From Promethearchaeia archaeon (GTDB taxonomy: Archaea > Asgardarchaeota > Lokiarchaeia > Sigyniarchaeales > SOKP01): a DNA stretch of 64,000 nucleotides. The notes under the pieces are model-generated. The model saw only the letters and a program-made list of their open reading frames with translations, had not been told where the DNA came from and ran no database searches. Made by a program: the position numbers and the translations under genes. The DNA lies in assembly GCA_029856105.1 (NCBI GenBank), contig JAHQWH010000224.1, positions 1-64,000 on the forward strand, written 5' to 3'. Shown piece by piece: positions 5,588 through 24,070 of this stretch; the first letter of the stretch is position 1, and each line of letters begins with the position of its first letter.

Positions 5588-5764
5588 TTTTTAATCAACA
5601 TTTCTATTTTGTATTTTAAATCCTAATGTTTATTATAAATTTTAATAGAGCGCAATAATATATAAAATTTTTAAGAAAAAAAGCTAAAAATTTTAATTAA
5701 TTATCAATTTAAGAAATTCATAATAGAATCTTTATGATTTTTAATAAGTTTAAAGTTGTCAAAA

Positions 5765-6604
5765 ATGAGTGAAGAAAAAGTTTTAAAAATTGGGATACTT
5801 AAGAATGGAACAATTGGTTCTTCGTTATTACTTGCTTTTTTATTGGATGAAAGGGCAGAATCTAAGAATATAGTTGTGCGAGAAGTTACCTCGGGAGCGA
5901 AAATGAACCCTCCAGAGGAATGCGTAGAAACAATGAAAAAATTATTAGAATTTGAACCGGAATTAATCTTAATGTCCAGTCCAAACGCGGCGTTAAAAGG
6001 ACCGAAAGCAGCAAGAGAATTAGCAGGAAATATTCCTACGATTATAGTCTCTGATGCCCCAGCAAAAAAGGCTTTCGAAGAATTTAAAGAAAAAAACATG
6101 GGATATATAATAGTAGGCTGTGACTCAATGATAGGAGCAAGGCGTCCATTTCTAGACACTATCGAGATGAGTTGTTTCAATGCAGATCTATTAAAAGTTC
6201 TTGCGATTACTGGTGCTTTTAATATAATAACTAACGAATTGAATAAAGTTATAATGGATATGTTAGAAGGGAAGGTTCCTACTTTACCTCAAATTGAGAT
6301 TAAAGCCACTAACGCTACAGAGGCAGCAGGTTTTTCAAACCCTTACGCCCAAGCTAAAGCTATTGCAGCTTTCGAATTAGCAGCTTCAGTTTCTAAGATT
6401 ACGGGAAGAGCGTGCTTTGTTTTAAAAGATAGAGCCGATTATATGCCTTTATTAGCTGCATCTCACGAAATGATGAAAACAGCTGCTGAATTATGCACAC
6501 AAGCCAGAGAAATAGAGAAATCTAACGACACAGTATTGAGAACGCCTCATCATGCTAAGCAACATCTTTTAACCAAGAGAAAACTCCACGAAAAAGAAGC
6601 TTAA
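5765..6604 (+). CDS. mtd: F420-dependent methylene-H4MPT dehydrogenase
   Basis: LLDERA, SGAKM.P, SPNAALKGP..ARE, DSMIGARR.FLD..EM..FNAD, ARE.EK..D.V.RTPH; start moved to the ATG at 5765. Confidence 0.95.
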   Translation: MSEEKVLKIGILKNGTIGSSLLLAFLLDERAESKNIVVREVTSGAKMNPPEECVETMKKLLEFEPELILMSSPNAALKGPKAARELAGNIPTIIVSDAPAKKAFEEFKEKNMGYIIVGCDSMIGARRPFLDTIEMSCFNADLLKVLAITGAFNIITNELNKVIMDMLEGKVPTLPQIEIKATNATEAAGFSNPYAQAKAIAAFELAASVSKITGRACFVLKDRADYMPLLAASHEMMKTAAELCTQAREIEKSNDTVLRTPHHAKQHLLTKRKLHEKEA

Positions 6605-6699
6605 TTATTATTATTAAAATATATTTTTAAAAAATTCTTATTTTTTTAATTTGTTTTTATAAAATAGGCAATTGAACTAAAAAAATTAAGGGAATCCTC

Positions 6700-6951
6700 T
6701 TAAAATATTTTTTGGATTCCCATTATTTCAGATTCTAATAAATATATTAAGGTTTCTATATATTGTCTATTAAATGAGTCTTTCTCACGAATAGTATTAT
6801 ACGCATTTAAATATTCATTTAATTGTGTTTCTTTTTCAATTATCTCCGCTTCAAAGTAACCTCGAGCAAATTCAGATATAAATTCTCTTTTAGAAGATAA
6901 AACGATTTTTTCTCCAAAACTATTTACTTCATTAACCAAACTTATCACCAT
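6700..6951 (-). CDS. Small helical-hairpin protein, paralogous to the central helical insert of 11259..11876
   Basis: ATG at 6951 behind AAGGTG SD; 19 of 52 aligned residues identical (counted by eye) to the middle of the 11259 protein. Confidence 0.7.
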   Translation of the reverse strand: MVISLVNEVNSFGEKIVLSSKREFISEFARGYFEAEIIEKETQLNEYLNAYNTIREKDSFNRQYIETLIYLLESEIMGIQKIF

Positions 6952-6992
6952 TATGTACACCTTTTAATTTTTATATAATTTTTTTATAACTT

Positions 6993-7072
6993 CTAATTAA
7001 ATAACCTTAAGCGATAAATTTAAAGAATTTGATAAGAAAAATTTTTGATAAATTGATAATTTTATTTTTCAA
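6993..7072 (-). promoter_or_regulatory. Promoter/operator copy A, with TATA-like box and TTGATAA-N6-TTTTCAA near-palindrome at 7053-7072
   Basis: 7021-7060 matches 11951-11990 at 34 of 40 positions; same position relative to the downstream gene. Confidence 0.65.
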
Positions 7073-7105
7073 AAAATTTCATTGACAAGTTTAATTATTT
7101 TATTT

Positions 7106-9379
7106 TTATCTGTAAATATCTTCGACTGTTTCTTTAATAGTTTCCTTATAAGCCATTTTAGCTTTATTAGCGCCTATTTGTACTTTCTCTATTGCTTTTT
7201 CAAAATCAGCTTGAGAAATTTTAACCTTTTTATATGAATCAGGATTTTGGGTATCTATATTATCGTCAATAACACTTCTGCGAATGGCCAAAAGTGTGGC
7301 TTCTTCGCAGATTGCTTTTATATCTGCTCCTGTATTTCCTTCTAACCTTTCTGCTAGTTTTTCACTATCAATATTATTATCTATCGGACGATTAGCGATG
7401 TGTATTTTAAATATCTTAATTCGAGAGGTTTTATTTGGTAATGGAACTTCTATATGCCTTCCGAATCTTCCTGAACGCAGAATGGCAGGATCGAGAATAT
7501 CAGGTCTATTTGTAGCCGCTATTAAAATGACATCTTTTAATTCTTCTAAACCATCCATTTCTGTTAAAAATTGCGCTACAACTTGTTCAATAACCCTTGA
7601 ACTTGAAGATATAGATCTTCTTGCCGCGATAGCATCAATTTCGTCAAAAAATATAATACAAGGAGCAGCCGTTCTTGCTTTTCGAAATATTTCTCTTACA
7701 GCTTTAGCACTTTCACCAACCCATTTTGATAGAAATTCAGGACCCTTTACTGAAATAAAATTTACTTCTGTTTCATGGGCAAGTGCCTTAGCCATTAATG
7801 TTTTACCCGTCCCAGGAAGACCAAATATTAAAATTCCATTAGGTGGTCTTGATTTCATATGTTTATAGAACCCCGAGTACTTAAATGGCCATTCAACTAT
7901 TTCTCTTAATTGCTGTTTTGCGTCTTCTAATCCGCCAATATCTTCCCAAGTCTCAGTTGGCTGCGTAACAAATACTTCCCTTAATGCAGATGGCTCAATA
8001 CTATTTAACGCTGTAATAAAATGTGTCATTTTGATTATTAATTTGTTTAAAATTTCTTCCGGTATAGGTTTATCTAAGTCAATATTAGGTATTATCTCCC
8101 TAATCGCAAGCATAGCTGCCTCTTTGCATAGAGCTTTAATATCTGCACCCACAAAACCGTGTGTTTTTTCAGCTATTAGATTTAGATCAATATCCTTATT
8201 TAAAGGCATTCCTCGAGTATGGATCAATAAAACTTCATAGCGCCCTTTAGTATCAGGTACTTTAATTTCAATTTCTCTGTCAAAACGCCCTGGTCTTCTT
8301 AGTGCTATATCAATATTATTTACTTTATTCGTTGCACCAATGACTATAACTTCACCCCTCCCTTCTAAACCATCCATAAGAGATAAAAGTTGAGCCACAA
8401 CTCTTGATTCTACCTGGCCTTTATTTTCATCCCTTTTATGAGCAATTGAATCTAATTCATCAAGAAAAATAATAGACGGAGCATTATCTTTTGCTTCTTC
8501 AAATCTTTTTCGAAGATTTTCTTCACTTTGACCAAAAAATTTGCTCATTATTTCAGGTCCACTGATATTTATAAAATAGGCGTCAGTCTCATAAGCTACT
8601 GCCTTTGCTAGTAAAGTTTTACCCGTACCTGGAGCCCCATGGAGTAGAACTCCTTTTGGAGGGTCAATTCCAATTCTTTCAAAAAGTTCAGGGTGTCTAA
8701 TAGGTAATTCAATCATTTCTCTAATCTTTTGAATCGAATCCTCTAAACCCCCTATATCTTCGTATGTTATTTTTCCCTGAATTTCTTGTAATCTCTGTTC
8801 TAAATCACTAATTCCTTCATATGCTATTTCTTTTTTTTTAATTTCGTTAATTTCTTGATTTGATTTTTCAACAAATAATATTTTTGTATCAAGTCGGATT
8901 TTAACCGCTTCAGAATTAGGTGTGTAATCAACGACTACAAGGTCAATTCTACGTGCCATGGCATAGAAGCTTAAGCTATCTCCTTTTGTTATTGCTCTAT
9001 TTTCTAATTTTCTAGCTAAGGCTTGAGGATCTCGAGGGATTAATGAATTATCTAACCCAGTAAAGGTTATTGTATTGGCAATATCTATACTAATTTTTTT
9101 AATTTCAACAAGGTCATCAATTGAGGCTCCTAAATTTCGTCTCAAGGAGGGATCCATACGAATAATCTTTTTTCCTCTATCTTCATTTTTTCCTGTTGAT
9201 AAAGAAGCAACAGTTTTTTTATTTACTATGGGATGGATGATTTTAATTACATCACCTATCTTAAGATTTAAATTTGAAACTATCTCTGGGTCTATTCTTA
9301 CAATGCCTCTCCCTGCGTCTTCTTTGAATGCGTCTTTAATCCTTACTTTACTTACAATCCCATCAATATTCTCAACCAT
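7106..9379 (-). CDS. cdc48: CDC48/VCP family double AAA+ ATPase
   Basis: N-domain ([10 protein letters not shown]), two AAA modules ([16 protein letters not shown]; DELD, DEID; [12 protein letters not shown]), C-terminal HbYX-like IYR. Confidence 0.96.
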
Positions 9380-9437
9380 TTTATTCCCCTCTAAACTAAC
9401 TAATAAATCAATAAAAAAAAAATAAAAATTTTAGAAT

Positions 9438-10451
9438 TTACATTTTATATAACAATTTTTTAGCAACTTCGAACGCATAGTTATAATCAAATACCTTTGT
9501 ACCTTTAGTTTTTGTTGCTTCTTTTAAGATTTCTCCCTCTGAATTTGCTTTTAAACGACCTAATGCTAATGCTCCGATTCCAAATATTCCTGGATAAATT
9601 TCTTTATTATCGTGTTTTGGTCTTATTCCTTCAATTCCATAAGGGGGAACTAAATTGATATCTACTACAATTTTCTTACCTTCTAACCTTTCCATTAGAT
9701 CGCTTGACAAAATTTCAACACCAGCAGCAGCTAGAGACCAGATAATAAGCGCATCTTTAGCAACATCATATCTTTGTTCATTTTCAGGAGCAAAAATCCC
9801 TTTAATCTCGGTCGCATTCTCCCCCGCTTCTTCGGTTACTTCTTTAGCAAGGTTTTTAATAAATTCTTCGTTCGATTTATCCCAAGTTTCAACTAAAAAT
9901 GTATTCATCCCTTCTTTTGCTGCTAATATGGCAGCAATTCTGGCAACTGGACCCGCCCCATAGATGACGACTTTTTCTCCTTTTAAATCCCTAATTTTAT
10001 GTATATTTTTAGCATCGTATAAAGTCTTAGCTACAACTGCAGAAGCAGTAGTATGAGAACCCCTTGGATCTATTATTACGGGACATTCAAATGGAGGTAC
10101 TAAGGATTCAATAACTTTCTTAGCAATTTTTTCCCCTTCCTTTACATTAGACCCCCCAATAAAAAACGTTGTACGTGCTTTAGGTTTACGCGAAAATATA
10201 GCATCCTGGACAAGTTTAGGAACTTGATCCGCCGTCATTCTACTTATTGGAACAACAATATCAAAACCAGCGTCGTAAGCCATGTTAATGTCAAACGGAG
10301 AAGCGTTATCATCCGTGTCAAAAAAATAGCAAATCTTATCTGAGGAATCCTTTTTCTTTATTTTAATTGGCGTCAATTCTATTATTGATTTTTTACCAAG
10401 AATACTTTCTATTTTATTTCCAATTTCATTATTTTGAGTAATTTTTCTCAT
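9438..10451 (-). CDS. mtdB: NAD(P)-dependent methylene-H4MPT dehydrogenase, MtdA/MtdB-like
   Basis: SPFDINMAYDAG, LVQDAIFSR, FIGG, DPRGSHTTASA, GAGPV Rossmann motif, DINLVPPYGIEG, GIGALALG.LK. Confidence 0.85.
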   Translation of the reverse strand: MRKITQNNEIGNKIESILGKKSIIELTPIKIKKKDSSDKICYFFDTDDNASPFDINMAYDAGFDIVVPISRMTADQVPKLVQDAIFSRKPKARTTFFIGGSNVKEGEKIAKKVIESLVPPFECPVIIDPRGSHTTASAVVAKTLYDAKNIHKIRDLKGEKVVIYGAGPVARIAAILAAKEGMNTFLVETWDKSNEEFIKNLAKEVTEEAGENATEIKGIFAPENEQRYDVAKDALIIWSLAAAGVEILSSDLMERLEGKKIVVDINLVPPYGIEGIRPKHDNKEIYPGIFGIGALALGRLKANSEGEILKEATKTKGTKVFDYNYAFEVAKKLLYKM

Positions 10452-10504: not shown

Positions 10505-11236
10505 TTATTTAGATATCTCAACTTCTACTTCTTCTTCATACTCTTTTTCGATTTCTGCGGTTTTAATAGTTCTTTTGATTTTAATCTGTTCTGTATCGAT
10601 GCCTAAATCGTTTGCTAACTTATCTAGGCCTTCAAAGTGCCTTAAATCGCAAATGAATAACCCTTTTAATTTTTTCCCATTAATCTCCTTTGCAAGATTT
10701 AAAGTATTCATCATCATCCAAGCTTCTCTAACTTTATATCGAATTTCATCTTCTTGTGAGTCATAATCATTTTTGAGATATTCCTTCCATAAAACTAATT
10801 GTTGGAAGAGTTCATCCTCGGAAGGAACACCACCATTTTCTGTAATTATCTCTTTGATTCGCTCTTCAAGTGTTTGTAGCATATTTCTGTGTTCATCCAA
10901 TGCGGCAGAAAGATAAAATTCCGCATTTTCAGAGATATCAGCATGTTTAAATCGAATTCCTTTCTTTTTGAATAAGTTTTTTAGAGGATCGTTAGGGTTT
11001 AACGGGTTATCCCAAAAATTAGGTTTTTCTTCTAAAGCAAAATCAGGTGAATATTTGTCTATTAAACCATCGATGAGCTGAAGATATTCTTTACTAATAA
11101 GATGTAAAGACCATAGCAAATCCTCCTTTTTTTCTTTAGGAACTTCGAACCACCAATCTATTGGAAACTCACTTTCTACCATGATAAGCTTTAGATGCTT
11201 ATTTTTTAATGGTTTTAATTCTAATACTTCTGGCAT
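10505..11236 (-). CDS. Uncharacterised protein, possibly TraB/GumN(Tiki)-like fold; paralog of the adjacent gene
   Basis: PDFALEE, REAWM and LFICDLRHFEGL...L...G pattern resembles the TraB/GumN C-terminus; shares EVLELKP.KNK N-terminus with its neighbour; GGAGTG SD. Confidence 0.6.
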   Translation of the reverse strand: MPEVLELKPLKNKHLKLIMVESEFPIDWWFEVPKEKKEDLLWSLHLISKEYLQLIDGLIDKYSPDFALEEKPNFWDNPLNPNDPLKNLFKKKGIRFKHADISENAEFYLSAALDEHRNMLQTLEERIKEIITENGGVPSEDELFQQLVLWKEYLKNDYDSQEDEIRYKVREAWMMMNTLNLAKEINGKKLKGLFICDLRHFEGLDKLANDLGIDTEQIKIKRTIKTAEIEKEYEEEVEVEISK

Positions 11237-11258: not shown

Positions 11259-11876
11259 TTAAAATATAACATTTTGAATTGTATGTTTTTTAGTATATGA
11301 AATTACTTTTACTCCCAAATCTCTTAAATCTGTTACGACTTGAGGGCAAATATCCTCGCAAATATCCTCTTGAACAAAATGAACAAAAGAAACTACTTCA
11401 TTTTCAAAACGATTTGCAAAATCTAACATTTTTTTTACGATCCACTGTGGTCTTAGCTTTAAGCTTAAAAAAATCTCTTTTTCTTGAATTTCTTCGCTTA
11501 ACATGTCAATCCAATTTTTTAGACTTTGTCCTTTGAAAGATTCTTTATCACTCATATTCTCGTATTCTTCAAATAATTCATTTTGAAGTTCTTGTTTTTC
11601 AACAATTTCTTCGTAAAGGTATCCCATTGCATAATCTGGAATATCTACCTGAATATATGGTATTCCAAGTTTATCTAATGTTTGAGCAAAAGGTGTTTTT
11701 TTAAACTCCTTCATATTTACTTGAAAATCAACGGTAACAAAATTAACATCTTTCTTTTTAAGAAAATCAGTTAGTCTTGATTTATCTTTATTTTGAAAAT
11801 ACCTGCCATTTTCTTTTGAGGACATATACGCTATTATTTTTTTATTTTTTACTGGTTTCAATTCCAAAACTTCCAT
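11259..11876 (-). CDS. Uncharacterised protein, degenerate paralog of 10505..11236
   Basis: ATG at 11876 behind GAGGTG SD; MEVLELKPVKNK N-terminus; collinear RPQWI versus REAWM. Confidence 0.7.
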   Translation of the reverse strand: MEVLELKPVKNKKIIAYMSSKENGRYFQNKDKSRLTDFLKKKDVNFVTVDFQVNMKEFKKTPFAQTLDKLGIPYIQVDIPDYAMGYLYEEIVEKQELQNELFEEYENMSDKESFKGQSLKNWIDMLSEEIQEKEIFLSLKLRPQWIVKKMLDFANRFENEVVSFVHFVQEDICEDICPQVVTDLRDLGVKVISYTKKHTIQNVIF

Positions 11877-11922: not shown

Positions 11923-12002
11923 CTAATTAAATTGTCATAAGCTTAAAATATAAAGAATTTGACAAGAAAACTTTTTAACATATTGATAAGGAATATTATC
12001 AA
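11923..12002 (-). promoter_or_regulatory. Promoter/operator copy B, with TTTATATT TATA box on the minus strand and perfect TTGATAA-N6-TTATCAA inverted repeat at 11983-12002
   Basis: Perfect 7-6-7 inverted repeat in the divergent intergenic region; conserved with 6993-7072. Confidence 0.7.
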
Positions 12003-12197
12003 AATTTTTTCTAAACAATTTTTTTAGTTAATTGAAAACCGTCATTCTTATTGATGGGATCCGTGGGTCACATGATCATTTTCTAACATATTTATATATT
12101 TTAACAACATATGTTATCATGAAGAAAAAATAATTTGTCAAAAAAAAGTTTTTAGCAAAATAAATTTAGAATAAAAAATCAATAGGAAAGCTCAAAA

Positions 12198-14744
12198 ATG
12201 GATATTTATTCAATTTTAGCCCATCCAATCAGAAGAAAACTCTTATATCTTCTCGAAGAAGAGGGTTTTATTCCATATACTGAATTAATGGTTAAGTTAG
12301 GTGTAGAACAAACTGGACAATTAAATTTTCATTTGAAAAAGCTTAATAATTTAGTAAGTAAAGACAAAAAATCATATTATTTAACTGATGATGGTAAAAG
12401 AGTATTAAGGATATTAGGATTAAACAAAAGAATTTTATCCGGAGAGGAAATAGACTATTTAAAATCAAAAGGTAGCGAAATAAACAGAATAGGTGTTATT
12501 ATCTGTAATTGTAATACAGAAATCTCAAATGTACTTAACATTAACTCCTTAGAAAACTATATAAGTAAAATAAATAATGTAGTTTCAGTAAAAATTCTTG
12601 ATAATTTATGTCAAGAAAAGAACCAAGATAAAATTAATAATTGGATTACTGATAACTTCATAAATAAAATTGTTATCGCTGCTTGTTCTCCTAAAACACA
12701 TCAACATATATTTGAACGTCTTTTTCAAAATATAATTGATAATGCAAATATTGAGATTGCAAATATAAGAGAACAATGTTGTTGGGTACACTATTCAAGT
12801 AAAAAACACATTGATAGTCTTTTAACTCTGAAAAAAGCACAATTACTTATAGAAGCCTCAGTTAATCGAGTAAGCCTTCAAAAACCAATTAAGATAAAAA
12901 GAGTTGAAGTTGAAAAAAGTTGTGCTGTTCTTGGAGGAGGAATTGCTGGTATGAATATAGCGTTAAACTTATCAAGGGCAGGTATCAAAGTTTATCTAAT
13001 TGAAAAGTCTCCTACGTTAGGGGGAAAAGTAGCAAGATGGCAAAAGATTTCAAATATGGGAGATTGCTCTACTTGCTTAATCTCTGAATTAATTGGGGAA
13101 ATTGTGAAAGAAAATAATATTGAAATCTTGACAAATTCGGAAATAATTAGCGTATCGGGAGAAGTTGGTAATTTTACTATAAACTTAATTAAAAAACCTC
13201 GCTATGTTGATGAGACAAAATGTACAGGTTGTAAGCAATGTGTGGATGTGTGTGCTCGAGAGAAAGTTAATCTATATGAATTTGGCTTAACGCATAGAAA
13301 AATAATTCACTTTCCTTTTCAATACTGTTATCCTTATGTCCCAGTTATTGAAGATGAAGATATTAATACCTGCCTTGAATGTGGAGTATGTGAACGTGCT
13401 TGTGCAAATAAAGCAATTAATTTAAGAGAAAAGCCTAAGGAATTGAGAATTAAAGTAGGCGCAAAAGTTATAGCTATTGGTTCAGATCTTTCTTCAAATT
13501 TAAAAGAATATAATTATAATCCACGAAATAATGTTATAACTTCGGCAGAATTTGAACGAATTTTATGTTCAGATGGCCTAACTAATGGAAAGATCGTAAA
13601 ATTGCCTGATGGGAAACCAGTGAAAACAATATCAATTATTCAAGAAGTTGGAATTTCAAACTATCTATGTGAATATTCGGATATTTTAGCCCTAAAGTAT
13701 ATAGATGTTATTAAAGTAAAGAGCCCTGATTGTGAAGTTAATGTTTTTTACGATTTAAGTAAACTAAAAGAAAAAGACGAAATAATACTAAAATCTACTC
13801 ATCCAAGATTTCTTTACGCTAATAAAGTATTAATTGAGACAAAAGAGAATATTAATTACGTAGTTGCGGATTCTATTGAGTTTCAGAGTGATTTGATCGT
13901 TTTAAATCTTAAATTAATTCCAAATAAGGATTTGAAAACTCTTAGAAAGATTATGGACTTCACTTTAAATGATTATGGTTTTATGAGTGAAGAAACTTTA
14001 GCTTCTGGTATTTATGGTGTTGGAACAATATTTGGACCATTAAATTATCACTCAACTATTGCAACCACTAATAACATAGCGTTAAAAGTAATATCACTTC
14101 TTTCAAACGATTATTTAATAACAGAATATACTGGAATAGAGATTAATGAAGACAAATGTGGATTGTGTAACCTCTGTGTTATTTCTTGTCCTTACAATGC
14201 AATAAGCATAAACTTCGAAAAAATTACTGTTGATAAGTTTAAATGTAAAGCTTGTGGTATGTGTGTTAGTGTTTGTCCTACTAATGCCATCGAAATGAAT
14301 ATAAATACATCAGAAAAGATTTTAAAAACGATCGAAATTTTCTCAAAATTCAATAAAAAACCAAAAATTATCGCTTTTTGTTGCCAATCTTGCGGTTACG
14401 CTGCCGCTGACAATGCAGGATTAAAGAAATTGTTATATCAGCCTAATGTTTTTATAATCTCTGTTCCTTGTACTGGCCGTATTGATACTGAATTCATTGT
14501 TAAATCTCTTGAAATGGGGTTTGATGGAGTTATGATTATTGGTTGCAGAAAGGATTCTTGTAGATATATTGACGGGATTGAAAAATTAAAAAAAAGAGTT
14601 AGGCTTTTAAAAAAGGTTCTAGGACCAAAGTTAAGCAGACGGATAATAGTGATGAGTTTAAACGGAGTAGAAGGACAGGTATTTGCTGAAATCTCTAATA
14701 AATTCTATAATTTATTAAAGGAGGAGATTAAAAGTGAGGCTTAA
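12198..14744 (+). CDS. hdrA: Fusion: ArsR-like winged-helix DNA-binding domain + degenerate heterodisulfide reductase subunit A-like FAD/FeS protein + MvhD [2Fe-2S] domain
   Basis: aa 1-75 wHTH (LAHPIRRKLL...LNFHLKKL...YYLTDDG); HdrA motifs CNC, AACSP, REQCCWVH, GGGIAGM, DCSTC, EFER; two ferredoxin pairs; MvhD motifs FCCQSCGYAAAD, PCTGRI, GC...SCRY. Confidence 0.9.
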   Translation: MDIYSILAHPIRRKLLYLLEEEGFIPYTELMVKLGVEQTGQLNFHLKKLNNLVSKDKKSYYLTDDGKRVLRILGLNKRILSGEEIDYLKSKGSEINRIGVIICNCNTEISNVLNINSLENYISKINNVVSVKILDNLCQEKNQDKINNWITDNFINKIVIAACSPKTHQHIFERLFQNIIDNANIEIANIREQCCWVHYSSKKHIDSLLTLKKAQLLIEASVNRVSLQKPIKIKRVEVEKSCAVLGGGIAGMNIALNLSRAGIKVYLIEKSPTLGGKVARWQKISNMGDCSTCLISELIGEIVKENNIEILTNSEIISVSGEVGNFTINLIKKPRYVDETKCTGCKQCVDVCAREKVNLYEFGLTHRKIIHFPFQYCYPYVPVIEDEDINTCLECGVCERACANKAINLREKPKELRIKVGAKVIAIGSDLSSNLKEYNYNPRNNVITSAEFERILCSDGLTNGKIVKLPDGKPVKTISIIQEVGISNYLCEYSDILALKYIDVIKVKSPDCEVNVFYDLSKLKEKDEIILKSTHPRFLYANKVLIETKENINYVVADSIEFQSDLIVLNLKLIPNKDLKTLRKIMDFTLNDYGFMSEETLASGIYGVGTIFGPLNYHSTIATTNNIALKVISLLSNDYLITEYTGIEINEDKCGLCNLCVISCPYNAISINFEKITVDKFKCKACGMCVSVCPTNAIEMNINTSEKILKTIEIFSKFNKKPKIIAFCCQSCGYAAADNAGLKKLLYQPNVFIISVPCTGRIDTEFIVKSLEMGFDGVMIIGCRKDSCRYIDGIEKLKKRVRLLKKVLGPKLSRRIIVMSLNGVEGQVFAEISNKFYNLLKEEIKSEA

Positions 14745-15498
14745 ATTTTTAATTACATCTTTAACGTCTTGTACTGGATGTATATCAGCATTGATATCAC
14801 TAGATATATTTCCACAATTTCTTGAAAGAACGAAAATCGAATATTTTCCATTTATATCTGACAATTTAGAGATTAATGAATGCGATATAGCGCTAGTGGA
14901 GGGGGCTGTGTCCGAAAAGAATCAAATCGAATATCTACAAGAAATACGAAAAAATGCAAAAAAACTATATGCATTAGGTACATGCTCAGCGTTTGGGGGG
15001 ATTCTTAGTCTCTCAAATAAAAAAGAATCGTATCCTATTTCAAAGTTTGTGGAAGTTGATGGTATTATACCTGGATGTCCCCCTCCATCCATACTTTTAG
15101 GAAATTGTTTATTGAGGTTAGTTGAGAACAAAAAAATCCAGCTAAGCTTTAAAAATATGTGTTCTACTTGTCCTTTAAACAACCACGCAAAATTAGATTT
15201 ACCATTAACAATAGAAAAGTTTGTTCCAAGAAACGATGAAATTCGTTTTCCGGAAGAAAATTTATCGTGTTTTTTGAACGATGGGATTTTATGTTTAGGT
15301 CCTATTACTCGAGATGGCTGCGATCATCTCTGTATAAAACAAGGTTTACCCTGTGAAGGATGTTTAGGGCCTGTTTCAAAGGGGTTTACGTCGAATTTAA
15401 TCAATTTCTTAAGTCTTTTTAACCTTTCTAAAGATTTAAGAAAATACAAGGGGATATACCATAGGTTCTCAAAACCACATGTAGGAGGGAAGGATTGA
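14734..15498 (+). CDS. mvhG: [NiFe]-hydrogenase small subunit, MvhG-like (group 3c)
   Basis: SCTGC, EGAV, GTCSAFGG, IPGCPP, CSTC, CFL..G.LCLGP.TR.GC..LC...G.PCEGC; overlaps both neighbours. Confidence 0.9.
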   Translation: MRLKFLITSLTSCTGCISALISLDIFPQFLERTKIEYFPFISDNLEINECDIALVEGAVSEKNQIEYLQEIRKNAKKLYALGTCSAFGGILSLSNKKESYPISKFVEVDGIIPGCPPPSILLGNCLLRLVENKKIQLSFKNMCSTCPLNNHAKLDLPLTIEKFVPRNDEIRFPEENLSCFLNDGILCLGPITRDGCDHLCIKQGLPCEGCLGPVSKGFTSNLINFLSLFNLSKDLRKYKGIYHRFSKPHVGGKD

Positions 15499-16799
15499 TG
15501 GATAAAGTTGTAGAAGCATGCACAAGGGTTGAAGGTAGTGGAAACTTAAACATTTATTTAAAAAACGATGAAATTTATCGAACTGAATTGAACTTTTCAG
15601 TATTTAGAGGATTTGAAAATATTTTAATAGGCAAAAAGCTATTAGATATTCCAAAAATAGTATCTAGAATTTGTGGACTGTGCTCCGCATCTCAAACAAT
15701 TGCAAGTTGCAAAGCAATAGAGAATATATACGGAATAGAACCATCAAACCAATCAATTTTGCTTAGAAGGGTTTTATTATCTGGAGAATTAATACAATCG
15801 CACATTATGCATTATTTTTTCCAATCCTTTCCAGATTTATTAAAAATATTTAAAATTAATACTATAATTAACGAACCTTATAATTTAATTAATTACAATC
15901 CTCATTTAACGACAAATGTATTTAATTTAATAAAAATTGGCTCAGAAATAAATAAGTTAATAGGAGGGAGGGTGTTACATCCAATTACTCCGATTCCTGG
16001 AGGATTAATATATAATCCGAATCGAAAGAGTTTTATTTCTATGGAGAAATATCTTCAAAAGGGAATTTACTACATAGAAACTATAATTGAAAATTTTATA
16101 GATTTATTTTCTGCTTTTGATCCTCCTACAGAATTTAATCTTTCTAATCCTATATATTTCGGCTTAAAAAACAATATGGGTTTTGATAGGTATGAAGGAA
16201 ACCTTAGAATTGAACAAAATGAAACAACTTACAACGATTTTCAAGCGAAAAATTATTCAAAATATTTTGATAAAGACCCTAATCTTTATGGGATTACGTT
16301 TAAGTCAAATTCGAAAAATGAAATTTTAACAGGACCAATTGCGCGCTATAAGTTAACTCAAAATTATGGAATAGATAAAATATACGAATACTTAAGCAAT
16401 TTTGGAAAAAAATGGCAAAGCAATTTATTATTTATAAACTTTTTACAATTAATTGAAAGTTATTACGAAATTCAAAAAAGTGTTGAAATATTAAATACTA
16501 CTTCACTAAAAAGTAAAACAAAACTTAAACAACTAAACTCAATAAAAAAATCAAATGGAATAGGGGTTATCGAAGCACCAAGAGGTATACTAATGCATCA
16601 TTATCATTTAAATAAAGCTAAATCCGTTGATCAAGTAAAACTTTTCATTGCAACCGAAATAAATATGCCTATTCTTAACAAAATGATCACTGAATATGCT
16701 AAAAAGCTATATGAAAAAGAAGATATCGATTCTGTTAAAGAAAAAGTTCAAATAATGATAAGAGCATTTGATCCTTGCATATCGTGCGCTTCTCACTAA
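15495..16799 (+). CDS. mvhA: [NiFe]-hydrogenase large subunit, MvhA-like, with sensory-type signatures
   Basis: TRVEG, RGFE, RICGLC, EAPRG..HHY, RAFDPCISCASH followed directly by a stop codon. Confidence 0.92.
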   Translation: MMDKVVEACTRVEGSGNLNIYLKNDEIYRTELNFSVFRGFENILIGKKLLDIPKIVSRICGLCSASQTIASCKAIENIYGIEPSNQSILLRRVLLSGELIQSHIMHYFFQSFPDLLKIFKINTIINEPYNLINYNPHLTTNVFNLIKIGSEINKLIGGRVLHPITPIPGGLIYNPNRKSFISMEKYLQKGIYYIETIIENFIDLFSAFDPPTEFNLSNPIYFGLKNNMGFDRYEGNLRIEQNETTYNDFQAKNYSKYFDKDPNLYGITFKSNSKNEILTGPIARYKLTQNYGIDKIYEYLSNFGKKWQSNLLFINFLQLIESYYEIQKSVEILNTTSLKSKTKLKQLNSIKKSNGIGVIEAPRGILMHHYHLNKAKSVDQVKLFIATEINMPILNKMITEYAKKLYEKEDIDSVKEKVQIMIRAFDPCISCASH

Positions 16800-16857: not shown

Positions 16858-17898
16858 TTGAAAGAAAATCTCTTAAATAACGCCAATACAGATTGTCCAT
16901 TTAAGGAATTATGTGAGACTCTTTTGTTTTATTTTGATGAGACTATAGGCCATGTCCCACTTCTTATTTGTCCAGAAAATGCGTTAGATGATGATTCGGG
17001 AAAAATGCATCTTATAAGATACCATCCAATTTGGTTTTTAGAGCTCAAAGATAAAACTACAATTAACCGAATCGATTTAGAATACTGTAATAATATGTAT
17101 TTTGCGAAGAAATTTATTGTTGAATCTAAAAGGGTTAAAAGAAGAGCAGGGTCTTTTCAAAAAATGGATGAAATAGTTGTGTTGATACTTGTGTTGCCAA
17201 CAGATTTAGATGTTTTTGGGGGAGAATTAATAAATTTATTAACGAAAAAAATAATCGATGAATTTGAAAATACGCTTTATCACGTAATAGAATCAGAAAT
17301 TGCGAAACTGGAAGTTATTAAAACAGAAAAATTAATTAATATAATAAAAAAAGGAGATCAGATAAAAGAAGAAATAAAAGCAATAATTAACCTTACTTGT
17401 GAGGAACATTTTTCATCGGTAATTAAACAAACTGATGCGACCTCTTTCAAATTGCAAAAAGCAATTTCTTATTTAACATTTAAAGGAATCGATATTGACC
17501 ACATTGTTATAGACGCTCAAAATGAATCGTTTTCTAAAATTCGATTATTCGATTACGATAGAGTTGTTCAACAAAAATTAGGAATAAAAGATCAATTTAA
17601 AATAACAAACATAAATATTATTAACAATTTTCAGGAAATAGAAGTTTTAGTAAAGAATAAAAGTAAAAAGGAATTCAACGATCTCATCGTCCGAATTACT
17701 TACATTAAAGAATTTTTTGAAAAAGAGGTATTAAACGAAAAAGTTGAAAAATGCCTTCCTGAAGAAGAATTATTGTTTATAACGCCCGTAATTAAAGAAA
17801 CAAACAATTATTTGTTTTCTATTATTGAAGAACATTCTAATAGAACAATTTTTTCTAAAAAAATTGATTTAGAATCAGTTAAAAGTCGTCCCTACTAA
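16858..17898 (+). CDS. Uncharacterised protein with N-terminal longin/uDENN-like domain and C-terminal beta-sandwich
   Basis: LFYFDETIGHVP..ICP pattern resembles the FD...GP start of uDENN/longin domains; fold is an inference. Confidence 0.5.
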   Translation: MKENLLNNANTDCPFKELCETLLFYFDETIGHVPLLICPENALDDDSGKMHLIRYHPIWFLELKDKTTINRIDLEYCNNMYFAKKFIVESKRVKRRAGSFQKMDEIVVLILVLPTDLDVFGGELINLLTKKIIDEFENTLYHVIESEIAKLEVIKTEKLINIIKKGDQIKEEIKAIINLTCEEHFSSVIKQTDATSFKLQKAISYLTFKGIDIDHIVIDAQNESFSKIRLFDYDRVVQQKLGIKDQFKITNINIINNFQEIEVLVKNKSKKEFNDLIVRITYIKEFFEKEVLNEKVEKCLPEEELLFITPVIKETNNYLFSIIEEHSNRTIFSKKIDLESVKSRPY

Positions 17899-18832
17899 GG
17901 AATTTTTTTAAATTTTGGTAATCTTCGCCATTTAAAACGTTCATTACCGTATCAAAAGTTCCAATTGTTTTCTCTTTTGTAACAACCATCAGTACCGATC
18001 CATTGCTAACTTCCTTCACTAGAATATAGTTATGTTCGCTCTCATATATAACAGTTGATAATTCTAAAGGAGAAATCGAAGAATTTGAAAGTTCCATGAT
18101 CTTTGAAAAAATTTGATAAATATTAGAGTCTAAGCTACCAATCTCGAATTTGATAAATTGGAGATTTGGACTTTCAAATTTTCCTATTGTGGAAGCTATT
18201 AATAAACCATCTGGTTGGTTAAATAAAAGAAATTCTGAAAGCGTATTGATCTTCAATTGGTCTAATAAATGGCGTATTTTCCCAAGCCTTTGTAAAGCTA
18301 ATGTGTTCTCTTGAATTTTATAATCGAGTATTTCGATCAATCGATGTTGAGCACTTCCCTCTTTTACTGATACAGGTGTAAAAGCAATTTTGCTTTTTAA
18401 ATCATCTGTAAGATCTTTAATTAACAGTTTATAAATGTCATCTTCTTTTGATTCTTGAAGATCAATTTTATTTAATAAGACATATACCTTTCCCACTTCA
18501 GGACTAAATTCAAAAAGGTATTTCAAGAATTTACCAAAAGTATCTTTCAGTTTTGGTTCTTCTGCTGCCGAATCAACCATGAAAACTGCAGCTGTTACAT
18601 CAGAAAATACAAGCTCTCGCTTTTTTTCTGAGAAATATCTTTCCATATAAAGTTCCTGACCCCCTAAATCCCAGATGGAAAGTTCCATTATTCCTCTAAA
18701 TATAAAATTTTCCCTTGAGACTCCTTTTGTAGGTTTCAGATTAAGCACTTTCATGAAATTATAACCTAAACAAGTAGTCCGCATTAATGACGTTTTACCC
18801 GCACCACCAGGGCCAAATAGGAGTATTTTTAT
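17879..18832 (-). CDS. RagA/Gtr1-like small GTPase with C-terminal roadblock domain
   Basis: Frame extends upstream of the tracked ATG to include the P-loop KILLFGPGGAGKTSLM; WDLGGQELYMERYF (G3), NKID (G4); roadblock-like C-terminus (NQPDGLLIAST); probable ATA start at 18832. Confidence 0.85.
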   Translation of the reverse strand: MKILLFGPGGAGKTSLMRTTCLGYNFMKVLNLKPTKGVSRENFIFRGIMELSIWDLGGQELYMERYFSEKKRELVFSDVTAAVFMVDSAAEEPKLKDTFGKFLKYLFEFSPEVGKVYVLLNKIDLQESKEDDIYKLLIKDLTDDLKSKIAFTPVSVKEGSAQHRLIEILDYKIQENTLALQRLGKIRHLLDQLKINTLSEFLLFNQPDGLLIASTIGKFESPNLQFIKFEIGSLDSNIYQIFSKIMELSNSSISPLELSTVIYESEHNYILVKEVSNGSVLMVVTKEKTIGTFDTVMNVLNGEDYQNLKKFLSRDDF

Positions 18833-19062: not shown

Positions 19063-19590
19063 TTGAATTTAGAAGATTACATAAGGAATGTCCCAGATTT
19101 TCCAATAAAAGGAATTCAGTTTAAAGATGTCACAACTTTGTGTAAGGTTCATGCTTCTTTTAAAGAGTCATGTGACAGACTAATAAATCATTTTAAAGAC
19201 AAAGGAATCAAGAAGGTTTGTGCTGTCGAAGCTAGAGGCTATGTGTGGGGCGGCGTTTTAGCGTATAAATTGGATGCTGGATTCGTTTTGATACGAAAAC
19301 CAGGAAAGTTACCTGCTGAGACGATTAAAGAGACCTATGAACTTGAATATGGTACTGATACTATTGAAATGCATAGGGATGCCATAGAAAAAGGAGAAAA
19401 AGTGTTATTATTTGATGATTTGTTAGCAACTGGAGGAACTGCAAAAGCAGCTTGCAATCTAATAGAAAAGGCAGGTGGAAGCGTAGCTGGGATTGCATTT
19501 GTTATTGAGCTTACCGGTAGTTTACATGGTCGAGACAAATTAGAAGGTTATGATATAATCAGTCTAATGAAGATAGTAGTTGATGAATAG
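19063..19590 (+). CDS. apt: Adenine phosphoribosyltransferase
   Basis: PDFP..GI.FKD, EARG, RKPGKLP, YELEYG, DDLLATGGT. Confidence 0.97.
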   Translation: MNLEDYIRNVPDFPIKGIQFKDVTTLCKVHASFKESCDRLINHFKDKGIKKVCAVEARGYVWGGVLAYKLDAGFVLIRKPGKLPAETIKETYELEYGTDTIEMHRDAIEKGEKVLLFDDLLATGGTAKAACNLIEKAGGSVAGIAFVIELTGSLHGRDKLEGYDIISLMKIVVDE

Positions 19591-19713
19591 TAAACGGAAT
19601 AAACACATTCACCCATTTTTTTCCCATAATAATATCCTTATTTTTTAGGCTGAAAATTTAAATAATTCTCTGTACTTTATACTCACAGTATTAAAATAAA
19701 CACATTATAAGGT

Positions 19714-20808
19714 GTGGATTTGATTCAAGAACTGAAAAAAACGCCATTCTATAATATTCACGTGAATTTAGGGGCGAGAATGGTCGACTTTGCTGGTTTT
19801 AGTATGCCAGTACAGTACGAAAGCATTATTAAAGAACACGAAGCGGTACGCAATAAAGCTGGTGTGTTTGATGTGTCCCATATGGGGGAATTCCTGTTAG
19901 AAGGGAAAGATGTAAAATCTTTTCTCCAATATGTAATGATTAACGATTTAAAACTACTAGAACCCACAAAAGGACAATATTCATGTATGTGTTACGAAAA
20001 TGGGACTGTTGTTGACGATCTTGTTTATTACGAGGAAGAACCTGAGCGATTTAGAATGATCGTTAACGCTAGCAATGTCGAAAAAGATTTTCAATGGTTA
20101 ATCGAGCATATTGAAGGTAGGGATGTTAAAATCACTAATTTATCCTTAGAACGATGTCGTTTAGCGTTTCAAGGTCCAAAATCCGACGAATATCTCCAAC
20201 CGCTAGTGGATGTCGATTTATCTTCGATAAATAGGTTTTATTTTGCTCACACTACGTTAAACGGGGCTCCAATATTTATAGCTAGAACCGGGTATACAGG
20301 TGAGCGAGGATTTGAAATTTCATTTGATAACAAATATGCTGAGAAAGTATGGAATGATCTAACTAAAGCTGGAGCCTCACCAGCAGGGTTAGGGGCGCGA
20401 GATTCGTTGAGATTAGAAGCAACTTACTCATTATATGGTCACGAAATTAGCGATTCAATTACACCTATTGAAGCAGGTCTTTTTTGGCTCGTTAAACCTA
20501 AAGAGGGTATCGATTATATTGGAAAAGAAACTTTATTAAAACAAAAATCCGAAGGAACAGATCGAATTATTGTTGGGTTGAATTTACTTGATAGGGGAAT
20601 TATTAGAGAGCATTATAAAATCTTTAAAAATGGCAATGAAATTGGATTCGTGACTTCAGGAGGATTTTCACCTACACTTAAGAAAACAATTGGTTTAGGA
20701 CTTGTTGAGAAACAATATAGCGAAGTAGGAACGGAATTTGAAATTGAAATTCGCAATAAGTTCTTGAGAGGAAAAATAGTTGCTACACCGTTTTATAGAA
20801 ATGTGTAA
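19714..20808 (+). CDS. gcvT: Glycine cleavage system T protein (aminomethyltransferase)
   Basis: KTP, FAGF.MPVQY, FDVSHMG, RTGYTGE.GFE, GLGARDSLRLEA. Confidence 0.97.
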   Translation: MDLIQELKKTPFYNIHVNLGARMVDFAGFSMPVQYESIIKEHEAVRNKAGVFDVSHMGEFLLEGKDVKSFLQYVMINDLKLLEPTKGQYSCMCYENGTVVDDLVYYEEEPERFRMIVNASNVEKDFQWLIEHIEGRDVKITNLSLERCRLAFQGPKSDEYLQPLVDVDLSSINRFYFAHTTLNGAPIFIARTGYTGERGFEISFDNKYAEKVWNDLTKAGASPAGLGARDSLRLEATYSLYGHEISDSITPIEAGLFWLVKPKEGIDYIGKETLLKQKSEGTDRIIVGLNLLDRGIIREHYKIFKNGNEIGFVTSGGFSPTLKKTIGLGLVEKQYSEVGTEFEIEIRNKFLRGKIVATPFYRNV

Positions 20809-20836
20809 TTATCTTACAAAAAAAAAGTGAAAAATT

Positions 20837-21232
20837 ATGGAATACGAATTTCCTGACGATATAAAATATATGAAGACACATGAATGGGCGCGAATTGAAG
20901 GCGATATGGCTACAATAGGCATTACCGATTATGCTCAGCATCAATTAGGTGATATAGTTTATGTTGAATTACCCGAAATAGGAAGAACGCTAGAAAAAGA
21001 TAGCAATGCTGGTGAAATTGAATCCGTTAAGGCAGTTGGAGAAATTTTAATGCCATTATCCGGAGAGATCGCTGAGATTAATGCTATTATAATAGAAAGC
21101 CCCGAATCAATTAATTCTTCTCCCTATGGGACTGGTTGGATGATGAAGATAAAGGTTTCAAATAGTAGCGAAATTAACGAACTTTTATCCGTTGAAGATT
21201 ACAAAAAAATAGTAGAAGAAGAGAAAAAATAA
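20837..21232 (+). CDS. gcvH: Glycine cleavage system H protein
   Basis: HEW, GITDYAQ..LGDIVYV, lipoyl-Lys motif ESVKA, N.SPY..GW. Confidence 0.97.
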   Translation: MEYEFPDDIKYMKTHEWARIEGDMATIGITDYAQHQLGDIVYVELPEIGRTLEKDSNAGEIESVKAVGEILMPLSGEIAEINAIIIESPESINSSPYGTGWMMKIKVSNSSEINELLSVEDYKKIVEEEKK

Positions 21233-21269
21233 ACTTTTTTTCCAATTTTTAATTTTATTTCTTAAATTC

Positions 21270-22634
21270 TTGAAGTATGAGTTGGTTAATTTGGATTTTG
21301 TTCCTCATGACGATAAAACTATTACTGAAATGCTTAAAGTTATTGGCATTAATAATTTAGAAGAATTATTTCAAGATATTCCTAAAGATTTAATTATTAA
21401 CAGTTTAAATTTACCTTTAGGCTTATCCGAACCAGATGTTCTGAAAAACTTAAAAGAACTTTCTCAAAAGAATAAAGTTTATTCTAATTCCTTTTTGGGA
21501 GCAGGTTATTATTTTCACTACATCCCTTCTTTAGTTGATTTTGTAATAAGTCGTACAGAGTTCTATACTTCATACACACCCTATCAAGCAGAAGCTAGTC
21601 AAGGTTATTTACAAGCGATCTATGAATATCAAAGCGTAATTTCTCGACTCACCCAGATGGATGTTGCTAATGCGAGTATGTACGATGGATCTACTGCGCT
21701 TGCAGAAGCGGCTATTATGGCAACTATAATAACAAGGAAAAACAGTCTATTATTATTGGAAGGTATTCATCCCGAATATTCTGAAGTTGTTAAGACTTAT
21801 TGTTGGGGACAAGGAATCAATCTTAGAATTATCGCTGAAAATAAATTAAAAGACGAATTAAACGAAGATATTGCAGCTGTTTTATTTCAAAGTCCAAATT
21901 TTTTCGGAGATATTGAAGATGTGTCTATGTTAGCAAAACGAGTGAAAGAAAAAGCTCCTAATTGCTTATTGATACAATGTATGACCGACCCCACATGTTT
22001 AGGTGTTCTGAAACCACCAGGGGAAACAGATGTAGATATTTTTGTAGCAGAAGGGCAGTCTTTTGGAATTAGTCCCTCATTTGGTGGACCGGGATTAGGG
22101 ATTTTTGCAGCAAAGAAAAAATATTTGAGAAAAATGCCAGGTAGATTAGTTGGCAAAACAAAAGAAATTGACGGAGAACGCGAGGGTTTTTTATTAACGC
22201 TACAAGCCCGTGAACAACATATACGAAGAGAAAAAGCGAGTTCAAATATATGCACAAACCAAGCATTATGTTCGTTATCTGCCTTAATTTATATTATATC
22301 TTTAGGAAAAACAGGATTGCGCGAAATCGCAAGCCAAAACTTTCAAAAAGCTAATTATGTTAAAATCAAACTAACAGAAATTCCTGGTTATGAAATTTTA
22401 AACAAAAAACCAACTTATAACGAATTTATTGTAAAGTGTCCAGATGTTGATGCTCTTACTCATGAATGCAAGCAATTAAACTTACTTCCTCCTCTATGTC
22501 TCTCAAAATATTTTCCAAATTTGAAGAACATAGTTTTAGTGTGTGTAACAGAAATGAATTCTCGTGAATCAATTGAAAAGTTTATCAATGCTGCTAAAAA
22601 TGCTCTACATAACAAAAAGGAGGGAAAAAAATAA
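21270..22634 (+). CDS. gcvPA: Glycine dehydrogenase subunit 1
   Basis: FLGAG, YTPYQAE.SQG, NASMYDG, REQHIRREKA.SNICTNQ; start may be the TTG at 21291. Confidence 0.96.
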   Translation: MKYELVNLDFVPHDDKTITEMLKVIGINNLEELFQDIPKDLIINSLNLPLGLSEPDVLKNLKELSQKNKVYSNSFLGAGYYFHYIPSLVDFVISRTEFYTSYTPYQAEASQGYLQAIYEYQSVISRLTQMDVANASMYDGSTALAEAAIMATIITRKNSLLLLEGIHPEYSEVVKTYCWGQGINLRIIAENKLKDELNEDIAAVLFQSPNFFGDIEDVSMLAKRVKEKAPNCLLIQCMTDPTCLGVLKPPGETDVDIFVAEGQSFGISPSFGGPGLGIFAAKKKYLRKMPGRLVGKTKEIDGEREGFLLTLQAREQHIRREKASSNICTNQALCSLSALIYIISLGKTGLREIASQNFQKANYVKIKLTEIPGYEILNKKPTYNEFIVKCPDVDALTHECKQLNLLPPLCLSKYFPNLKNIVLVCVTEMNSRESIEKFINAAKNALHNKKEGKK

Positions 22635-24070
22635 TGGATATTAATGATTCTTTGATTTTTGAAAAAGGGGTTGACCGAGCCCAAAAGAATTTCATTCCAA
22701 AAATGGATGTTAAGACAGAAAAACTTGAGGACATCCTTCCCAAAAATCTCTTAAGAGATGTGCTTCCAATTCCAGATGTTCCTGAGGTGGAGATCGTTCG
22801 CCATTATGTTAAATTAAGCACGATAAACTACGGTGTAGATTCAGGAATTTATCCGTTAGGCTCTTGTACCATGAAATATAACCCAAAAATTAACGAGATA
22901 GTAGTACGATTAAATGAATTTTCGCAAATACATCCACTTCAGGACGAAAGTGAAGGTTCACTTGAATTACTATACAATATTTCAATAATGTTAAGTGAAA
23001 TTACTGGTATGGACGGATTTACCTTACAACCTGCAGCTGGAGCGCATGGAGAATTAGTTGGTATGTTAATAATAAAAAAATATTTCGAGACTAAAGGGAT
23101 TATCAAAGATAAAATTATAGTTCCAGATTCGGCTCACGGCACTAATCCTGCGTCGGCGAAAATGGCTGGATTTTCAATTATTGAATTACAATCAAACGAA
23201 TACGGTGAAGTTTCGCTGGACCATCTTGAATTTGCAATGCAACAAGGCGATGTAGCAGGAATTATGCTAACAAATCCTAACACGTTAGGTGTTTTTGATA
23301 GACAAATTAAAGATATAACTAAAATCGTCCATAAGCATGGTGGGTTATGTTATTACGACGGAGCAAATCTGAATCCTATGTTAGGGATCTGTCGCCCAAG
23401 AGATATGGGTTTTGATATAGTTCATTTGAACTTACATAAAACTTTTTCAACACCTCACGGTGGTGGGGGCCCTGGCTCTGGTCCTGTTGGCGTTATAAAC
23501 GAACTCATCTCATTTTTACCAAAACCCTATATAATCTCGACTGATGATAGCATTGTTTGCGAACAGAACAACGATAAATCAATAGGGCGAATTAAAGCTT
23601 TTTGGGGTAATTTTGGGGTAATCTTAAGAGCATATACTTATATACTATCTTTAGGAGCAGATGGTTTAAAACGGGTTGGTCAGATAGCCGTTTTAAACGC
23701 TAACTACCTAAAATGTTTGCTACAAAAGAAATACGAGCTTCCATATAACCGCAGGTGTCAACACGAATTTGTTTTGTCTGATAAAAATTTACCAAACGAT
23801 ATTACAACTGAAGATGTTGCTAAAAGAATTCTTGATTATGGTTATTATTCTCCAACTATTTACTTTCCCTTAATTGTAAATGGAGCAATAATGATTGAAC
23901 CGACAGAAACAGAATCAAAATATTCCTTAGATAAATTCGCTGAAGCGATGTTAAAGATTTACGATGAAGCGTTAAATAAACCAGAACTTTTGAAATCTGC
24001 ACCACATAACACCCCAATTGGGCGATTAGACGCGGTGATCGCTGCAAGAAAACCAATCTTGCACGATTAA
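22634..24070 (+). CDS. gcvPB: Glycine dehydrogenase subunit 2
   Basis: YPLGSCTMKYNP, QPAAGAHGE, SAHGTNPASA, PLP-Lys motif NLHKTFSTPHGGGGPG. Confidence 0.97.
   Translation: MDINDSLIFEKGVDRAQKNFIPKMDVKTEKLEDILPKNLLRDVLPIPDVPEVEIVRHYVKLSTINYGVDSGIYPLGSCTMKYNPKINEIVVRLNEFSQIHPLQDESEGSLELLYNISIMLSEITGMDGFTLQPAAGAHGELVGMLIIKKYFETKGIIKDKIIVPDSAHGTNPASAKMAGFSIIELQSNEYGEVSLDHLEFAMQQGDVAGIMLTNPNTLGVFDRQIKDITKIVHKHGGLCYYDGANLNPMLGICRPRDMGFDIVHLNLHKTFSTPHGGGGPGSGPVGVINELISFLPKPYIISTDDSIVCEQNNDKSIGRIKAFWGNFGVILRAYTYILSLGADGLKRVGQIAVLNANYLKCLLQKKYELPYNRRCQHEFVLSDKNLPNDITTEDVAKRILDYGYYSPTIYFPLIVNGAIMIEPTETESKYSLDKFAEAMLKIYDEALNKPELLKSAPHNTPIGRLDAVIAARKPILHD

Follow-up and report, generated by a model that had tools for sequence, protein, structure and literature searches.

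The locus and its genes

The DNA analysed here, called the window throughout, is a stretch of 64,000 nucleotides (nt) from a Promethearchaeia archaeon (contig C225 of a 3.66-Mb genome). It encodes a protein in which one domain, of the winged helix-turn-helix (wHTH) type, is fused to HdrA and MvhD. The gene is followed, in overlapping series, by genes for a MvhG-like small subunit and a MvhA-like large subunit of a [NiFe]-hydrogenase, and palindromic sequences are found in the promoter of this operon and close to that of a divergent operon (Table 1). The fused complex is probably a direct hydrogen (H2) or redox sensor. A first-pass annotation, made from the letters of the window, had described an in-frame fusion carrying a complete ArsR-like winged helix at its N-terminus, with mvhG and mvhA overlapping downstream, and each of these elements was recovered in the present analysis. 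Genomes (G), contigs (C), loci (L) and families (f) are given by number only where needed; the family of the window is f1.

Table 1. Coding sequences, domains and candidate regulatory sites in the window (aa, amino acids; FAD, flavin adenine dinucleotide; H4MPT, tetrahydromethanopterin; ORF, open reading frame; pLDDT, predicted local distance difference test)
Feature	Position	Strand	Remarks
wHTH-HdrA-MvhD fusion ORF	12198-14744	+	848 aa, no internal stop
wHTH domain, DUF7347/ArsR-like, aa 1-78	12198-12431	+	recognition helix T39-G-Q-L-N-F-H45; Pfam PF24038
Linker aa 79-95, wHTH to HdrA N-terminal domain	12432-12482	+	pLDDT <50 over aa 78-94
HdrA body, aa 96-715	12483-14342	+	N-terminal Cys set, FAD Rossmann GGGIAG, Cys pair C290/C293, two 2x[4Fe-4S] ferredoxin domains, E453, K500
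Degenerate HA4 site in HdrA	13644-13685	+	residue alignment to 5ODC_A
Fused MvhD domain	14343-14744	+	[2Fe-2S] ligands C729, C732, C758, C783, C788; PF02662; Cys invariant in 116 sequences
MvhG-like small subunit	14734-15498	+	254 aa; overlaps fusion by 11 nt; 12 Cys invariant in 56 orthologues
MvhA-like group 3 [NiFe] large subunit	15495-16799	+	434 aa; overlaps mvhG by 4 nt; ends DPCISCASH-stop
Own promoter	12091-12140	+	TATA-like TTTATATA (12091-12098), palindrome 12102-12119 (1 mismatch); repressor geometry
Perfect palindrome TGATAA-N6-TTATCA	11984-12001	.	putative operator
Divergent-operon promoter	11949-11965	-	half-site TTGTCA (11965-11960), 5 nt, TATA-like TTTATA (11954-11949); activator geometry
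Third operator-like site	7054-7071	.	half-site 5 nt before TTTAAA, upstream of 86-aa ORF; conserved in 10 relatives
up1, alpha/beta protein with coiled-coil insert	11259-11876	-	205 aa from ATG at 11876; presumed target
up2, paralogue of up1	10505-11236	-	fused to MtdA/B-like enzyme in several genomes
MtdA/B-like NAD(P)-type methylene-H4MPT dehydrogenase	9438-10451	-	presumed target; PF09176 E 4e-26
CDC48-like AAA ATPase	7106-9379		in H4MPT one-carbon cluster
86-aa ORF	6700-6960	-	downstream of third operator-like site
F420-dependent mtd	5756-6604		H4MPT one-carbon cluster
ftr	4676-5587		H4MPT one-carbon cluster (window 4676-10451)

Architecture and conservation of the fusion

Three profile matches cover the fusion protein. 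Residues 2-72 fit the DUF7347 wHTH family (PF24038, E 2e-10), residues 93-713 fit HdrA (5ODC_A, E 2e-103) and residues 724-841 fit MvhD/FlpD (PF02662, E 2.5e-33); in profile comparison the wHTH is also similar to 1Y0U_A (E 0.003). AlphaFold models aa 3-80 with confidence as three helices, a beta-wing and a long fifth helix, and the HdrA/MvhD part of the model matches the 8RVY, 5ODC and 7BKB folds. Both the winged-helix fold and the conserved recognition helix that mark the ArsR-like/DUF7347 class are present. No Cys was found within aa 1-95 on inspection of the sequence. A complex prediction with two copies of aa 1-92 scored 0.22 and was not used as evidence either way.

T39, G40, L42, N43, F44 and H45 of the wHTH are invariant in 116 sequences, a set picked with an N-terminal query and for this reason biased for conservation by domain, so that identity by family and the ratio of nonsynonymous to synonymous substitution rates (dN/dS) have been preferred. 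The recognition helix reads TGQLNFH in families f1, f5 and f23, with small changes in the others. Identity of the wHTH to the query (75% in f1, 38-41% in f11/f16) is about that of the enzyme domains, and its dN/dS in eight close genomes is 0.18, versus 0.14-0.33 for the other domains. These figures indicate that the wHTH is maintained by purifying selection. A second DUF7347 fusion, to a protein resembling the anaerobic ribonucleotide reductase NrdD, was found elsewhere (G000:C114:3898-5919, L166), and is possibly another one-component regulator.

Full-length, stop-free matches to the fusion (54-100% identity) were identified in 18 of 41 near genomes, the window's own included. Residues 1-198 are matched in 71 of 301 Asgard genomes distributed over seven families, all but one of the carrying genomes having one copy; an additional family, f4, came from the near-genome search. 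The fusion is found in 50 of the 68 genomes of f1, and was not found in the seven genomes of f2, a family of the same order. It is covered full length by 115 database clusters, the close protein relatives bearing the label Lokiarchaeota/Promethearchaeota, and a search of 1.84 billion representatives revealed a cluster from Bathyarchaeia whose three genes form the same operon. Every sufficiently long fetched locus has fusion, mvhG and mvhA in this order, except that of G033, where the fusion ends early (646 aa). The first-pass annotation had proposed a search of Asgard and other archaea for such fusions and for conserved synteny; both have been encountered, in the Asgard genomes and in some Bathyarchaeia. 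Full-length stop-free matches across genomes and database clusters rule out an assembly artefact or a singleton, and the comparisons indicate that the fusion is real and old. One alignment, A2, includes a wrongly framed row (L019); it served for two profile look-ups and nothing else.

Flavin site, iron-sulphur ligands and Hdr partners

K500 and E453 are the counterparts of Lys409 and Glu356 of 5ODC, and are invariant, along with C290 and C293, in 57 orthologues. Lys409 lies close to flavin N5 (PMC13514486, PMC10734219), and the methanogen equivalent of the C290/C293 pair sits between MvhD and FAD (PMC13580544). The lysine of a changed GPKD motif was also considered as the counterpart of Lys409, and discarded because 5ODC numbering places Lys409 at the invariant K500 and GPKD at K545. 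The Cys residues of the ferredoxin domains, of the N-terminal set and of MvhD are all retained. Residue alignment pairs Cys386, 399, 403 and 404 of 5ODC with E483, C491, D495 and I496, three of the four Cys being replaced. In the 5ODC structure these four are taken to be the ligands of the HA4 cluster. HA4 passes the high-potential electron toward HdrC/HdrB (PMC13580544, PMC12350162). Loss of the ligands is common to families f1, f4, f5 and f23, the first ligand being a Cys in only 5 of 36 f1 sequences. In the HA4-less lineage the ligand pattern implies that the input and the low-potential branch are intact, and that the heterodisulfide exit is cut.

No HdrB (CCG) match was found on the window's contig, nor was hdrB found in any fetched fusion locus, a positive control having worked, in agreement with the earlier remark that the gene does not lie near the module. 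Many hdrB copies are located elsewhere in the genome, and their use in trans is compatible with the data. A canonical VhuGAU-HdrCB operon, with hypD and hypF alongside, was identified on contig C19, which makes the fused module a specialised second copy. The canonical large subunit is split, and its C-terminal Cys motif contains a TGA codon, like that of VhuA/VhuU (G000:C19:18372-21132, L049); the in-frame TGA likely encodes selenocysteine. A molybdopterin oxidoreductase also adjoins the canonical hydrogenase and hdrCB, and a maturation protease is encoded on contig C12.

The hydrogenase subunits

MvhA retains the four Cys of the Ni-Fe site (C60, C63, C428, C431), E13 and R363. Its best matches are group 3 enzymes (7T2R_D, 5ODC_F, 9SW2_F, 5XF9_D), together with ShyA and VhuA models. 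All complete f1 MvhA sequences end at His434 and have no C-terminal tail, and in six other families 6-13 aa follow the terminal motif. The Ech large subunit is likewise tail-less (PMC6769069). The hydrogenase had been called sensory-type by the first-pass annotation, a label that goes too far: of the group 2b features the missing tail is found, in f1, and the group 2 sequence type is not. The absence of a tail is not diagnostic because tails occur in the other families and Ech lacks one too, and it was rejected as a sensory trait of the whole group.

Across f1 genera MvhA of the fused system shares 44-64% identity, versus 79-88% for the canonical enzyme, figures obtained from different genome pairs and overlapping genera. 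This fast drift fits a relaxed catalytic demand. A tree of MvhA parts the rows of the fused system from the canonical rows; it has no outgroup, so a single origin is not implied. The dN/dS values are 0.21 for MvhG and 0.27 for MvhA. A near-invariant T387-E388-x-N390 motif (window 16653-16664) lies beside the Fe-site ligand loop of MvhA, the corresponding residues being T-V-Q-N in 5ODC and T-G-H-N in 7T2R; Glu388 may tune activity or affinity.

Palindromes and promoter geometry

Alignment of upstream regions yielded the palindrome TGAYAA-N6-TTRTCA, which is exact in 32 of 58 own promoters (dinucleotide shuffle mean 0.02) and within one mismatch in 46 (shuffle mean 0.78), although the genomes are kin and shuffle counts overstate significance; the Bathyarchaeia provide the most independent test. 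With other spacer lengths the palindrome occurs in 0-2 of the 58 regions. A different palindrome, ATCATA-N5-TATGAT, was not borne out by the alignment. The core GAYAA-N6-TTRTC is present in 45 of them, in six of the seven families. An inverted repeat as putative operator in the own promoter, expected of the ArsR-like/DUF7347 class, is found here both in presence and in position, and a second imperfect copy (12123-12140) lies over the expected start site of the own operon.

The position of the site relative to the TATA-like box differs between the two types of promoter. In 23 of the 58 own promoters the site begins 3-4 nt after the box. In 35 of 63 promoters of the partner gene up1 a half-site ends exactly 5 nt before it, an arrangement seen in 0 of 58 own promoters. 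Where up1 is not arranged back-to-back with the fusion, its promoter features a site within one mismatch in 19 of 20 cases (shuffle mean 0.31), and on contig C11 the site is also found ahead of another up1-up2/mtdB operon. Both flanking promoters in Bathyarchaeia have this core at 5 nt before TTTAAA, ahead of unrelated genes, one set being a GcvH-HydCBA-like flavoprotein operon; the motif hence keeps to the fusion rather than to the target gene. In one genome without the fusion (G252, 97% complete) the locus of the up2-mtdB gene has no site. Altogether, the pattern strongly suggests regulation. A large genome-wide regulon was looked for and not seen: the 2 exact sites in the genome equal the number found with control spacers, and in the family the pattern is only slightly more frequent than its reversed form.

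Presumed targets and neighbouring genes

The up1 gene is present in all 50 fusion-bearing f1 genomes and in 1 of the 18 others (E<1e-25). Neither Up1 nor Up2 matched a Pfam family or gave a clear fold match; only the coiled-coil hairpin was matched, and Atlas look-alikes are unnamed. The two belong to an Asgard protein family often fused to the MtdA/B-like enzyme, with a further copy at G000:C11:23728-26024 (L167), and a more distant paralogue precedes a flavoprotein resembling dihydrolipoamide dehydrogenase (L122-L125). As ftr and the F420-dependent mtd lie in the window, a natural guess is that the H2 level switches between F420- and NAD(P)-linked oxidation of methylene-H4MPT.

Downstream of mvhA (window 16858-18784), many f1 genomes feature a gene of 346 aa (paralogue on C17), on which a gene for a Gtr1/RagA-like small GTPase (17879-18784) converges. 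The region 19063-24070 is ordinary, and includes an adenine phosphoribosyltransferase gene followed by an apparent glycine cleavage operon (T, H, P1, P2).

A model for the fused complex and its alternatives

We hold it rather likely that the complex is a kinase-free transcription factor, sensing H2 or redox state, built from Mvh-Hdr parts. DNA binding, complex assembly and H2, as opposed to the general low-potential redox state, as the input are inferred from the sequence; H2 is a plausible signal. MvhA and MvhG would attach to the MvhD part of the fusion in the manner of MvhAGD-HdrA, and electrons from H2 would move toward FAD. With HA4 lost and without HdrCB as a partner, the flavin would have no high-potential drain, and its two-electron state, for which the Lys409/Glu356 pair is kept, would track the H2 pressure and, via the ferredoxin domains, the low-potential pool. 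In methanogens the mobile arm of HdrA is made of its N- and C-terminal domains (PMC12350162). A redox-driven swing of this arm, to which the wHTH is tethered, would gate the pair of wHTH domains of a dimer on GAYAA-N6-TTRTC. Sitting after the TATA box, the complex would repress its own operon, and from a position 5 nt before the box it would activate a small regulon comprising up1-up2-mtdB, the second copy of that operon and the 86-aa ORF and, in Bathyarchaeia, the GcvH-HydCBA-like flavoprotein operon. At the 5-nt sites repression by covering the B recognition element is a possible alternative to activation. The broader proposal, toward which we lean somewhat less firmly, is that of a new archaeal H2 sensor, shared by several Asgard families and some Bathyarchaeia. 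In it the H2 pressure would act directly, repressing the operon of the sensor and switching on H4MPT one-carbon and electron-carrier genes, and neither a kinase nor a second messenger nor a separate regulator would take part. The idea of the first-pass annotation that the Mvh-Hdr electron wire has been repurposed for a H2-driven transcription factor is thus retained in part: palindrome geometry, conserved wHTH, HA4 loss and a separate canonical Vhu-Hdr operon favour it, and the label sensory-type for MvhA, which is no group 2b subunit, is the part that fell.

Several observations weigh against this model, and are given here with the alternatives which they favour. All electron-transfer ligands besides HA4 (NiFe, MvhG, MvhD, ferredoxin, flavin Lys/Glu) are kept, and a real flux to ferredoxin is possible; moreover, the HA4 ligands are intact in four lineages (f11, f16, f20 and Bathyarchaeia), so that a dead-end flavin does not characterise the family as a whole. 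The complex might then be a trigger enzyme, that is a working oxidoreductase between H2 and ferredoxin (or another acceptor) without HdrBC, in which autoregulation by the wHTH tells not of H2 pressure but of whether the complex is assembled or loaded with its cofactors (Ni, FeS, FAD). The DUF7347-NrdD-like fusion, showing that enzyme-plus-wHTH fusions recur in the same genome, would agree with this. We regard it as unlikely, since sites at activator spacing are found before unlinked operons too, MvhA changes at a far higher rate than its canonical counterpart in the same family, and metabolism is already served by the canonical Vhu-Hdr. In family f11 (L090, L091, L096) the catalytic Glu of RxEG is missing from MvhA, with Gly at the position of Glu13, and xSRG replaces APRG; this MvhA may be an inactive subunit or one that senses something other than H2. 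Such a loss would suit a sensor of the redox pool that reads reduced ferredoxin through its ferredoxin domains, the hydrogenase being a slow H2-evolving drain that resets it and H2 not the signal. The invariant Cys of the HA5/HA6-type and C-terminal ferredoxin sites, and targets linked to electron carriers (MtdA/B-like; HydCBA-like in Bathyarchaeia), are in line with it, but in every sufficiently long locus except G033 the fusion is followed by mvhG and mvhA, both of them under purifying selection, which makes this alternative quite improbable.

Two further observations concern the palindrome. Genome G021 (99% complete, 320 contigs) keeps sites before up1, and in it the fusion, an orthologous wHTH and an orthologous MvhA were not found; conversely, family f20 has the fusion and the core motif in 0 of 5 promoters. 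The palindrome could accordingly belong to another transcription factor, the wHTH being structural or a non-specific binder of nucleic acids, and three other DUF7347 proteins are encoded in the genome. Their recognition helices, however, differ from TGQLNFH, the motif accompanies the fusion into Bathyarchaeia beside unrelated genes and is not genome-wide, and G252 lacks both fusion and site; we give this explanation very little credit. The preferred model is that of the H2- or redox-sensing transcription factor.

Relationship to known systems

No H2-sensing protein of archaea is known to have been characterised. In syntrophy models of the Asgard host of eukaryogenesis H2 exchange has a central place, and the fused module is a concrete candidate for how Asgard cells read H2. 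If the model is correct, a bifurcating HdrA scaffold has been turned into a signalling device. A natural HA4-less HdrA that keeps the flavin Lys/Glu pair would be useful for dissecting bifurcation, and a first test is cheap, since a 95-residue domain and an 18-bp putative operator are defined. Literature searches on the wHTH fusion, DUF7347 and archaeal H2 sensing through HdrA, in which subscription papers were poorly covered, gave nothing relevant, in keeping with the earlier statement that the architecture had no known description; HdrA-MvhD fusions alone have been described, in Loki- and Thorarchaeota (PMC11237513). The conserved architecture falls outside described systems.

The closest relative is MvhAGD-HdrABC of methanogens (group 3c; 5ODC, 8RVU, 9SW2; HdrA2 NF040770), with which the module shares the HdrA fold, the FAD motif, Lys409/Glu356, the Cys pair, the ferredoxin domains, the MvhD [2Fe-2S] site, the MvhG clusters and the NiFe Cys ligands. 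It differs in the N-terminal wHTH, the HA4 ligands lost in this lineage, the changed GPKD motif, the lack of linked hdrBC and a putative operator of its own. Against NF040770 the fusion scores 558 bits, the cut-off being 1100, and judging from its residues and neighbours the module lacks two defining traits of MvhAGD-HdrABC, the HA4 cluster and linked hdrBC.

In HydDB the sensing [NiFe] enzymes are only those of group 2b, linked to a kinase, and of the putative group 2c, linked to a diguanylate cyclase (PMC5037454). The module shares with the group 2b HoxBC/HupUV a tail-less large subunit (in f1 only) and the proposed role of H2 sensor, but its ancestry is in group 3 and the DNA-binding domain is part of a partner subunit. 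No histidine kinase or response regulator was found among the scanned flanking genes or annotated contigs, no genome-wide kinase search having been made.

SurR of Thermococcales is an activator where its site precedes the TATA box and a repressor where the site follows it (10.1101/2025.03.14.643387). This position rule, an archaeal ArsR-related wHTH and the link to hydrogen and redox genes are common to both systems. SurR is a stand-alone CxxC disulfide switch that recognises GTT-n3-AAC, whereas the fused wHTH has no Cys in aa 1-95, has a different motif, and is attached to a wire of flavin and FeS centres that has a hydrogenase of its own. Trigger enzymes of the PutA type combine a flavoenzyme with a DNA-binding domain, and the redox state of the flavin controls autorepression. 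Folds and signal are unrelated to those of the fused module, and PutA switches by relocating to the membrane and has no [NiFe] partner. By analogy, the fused module may be regarded as combining the workings of SurR with those of a PutA-type trigger enzyme.

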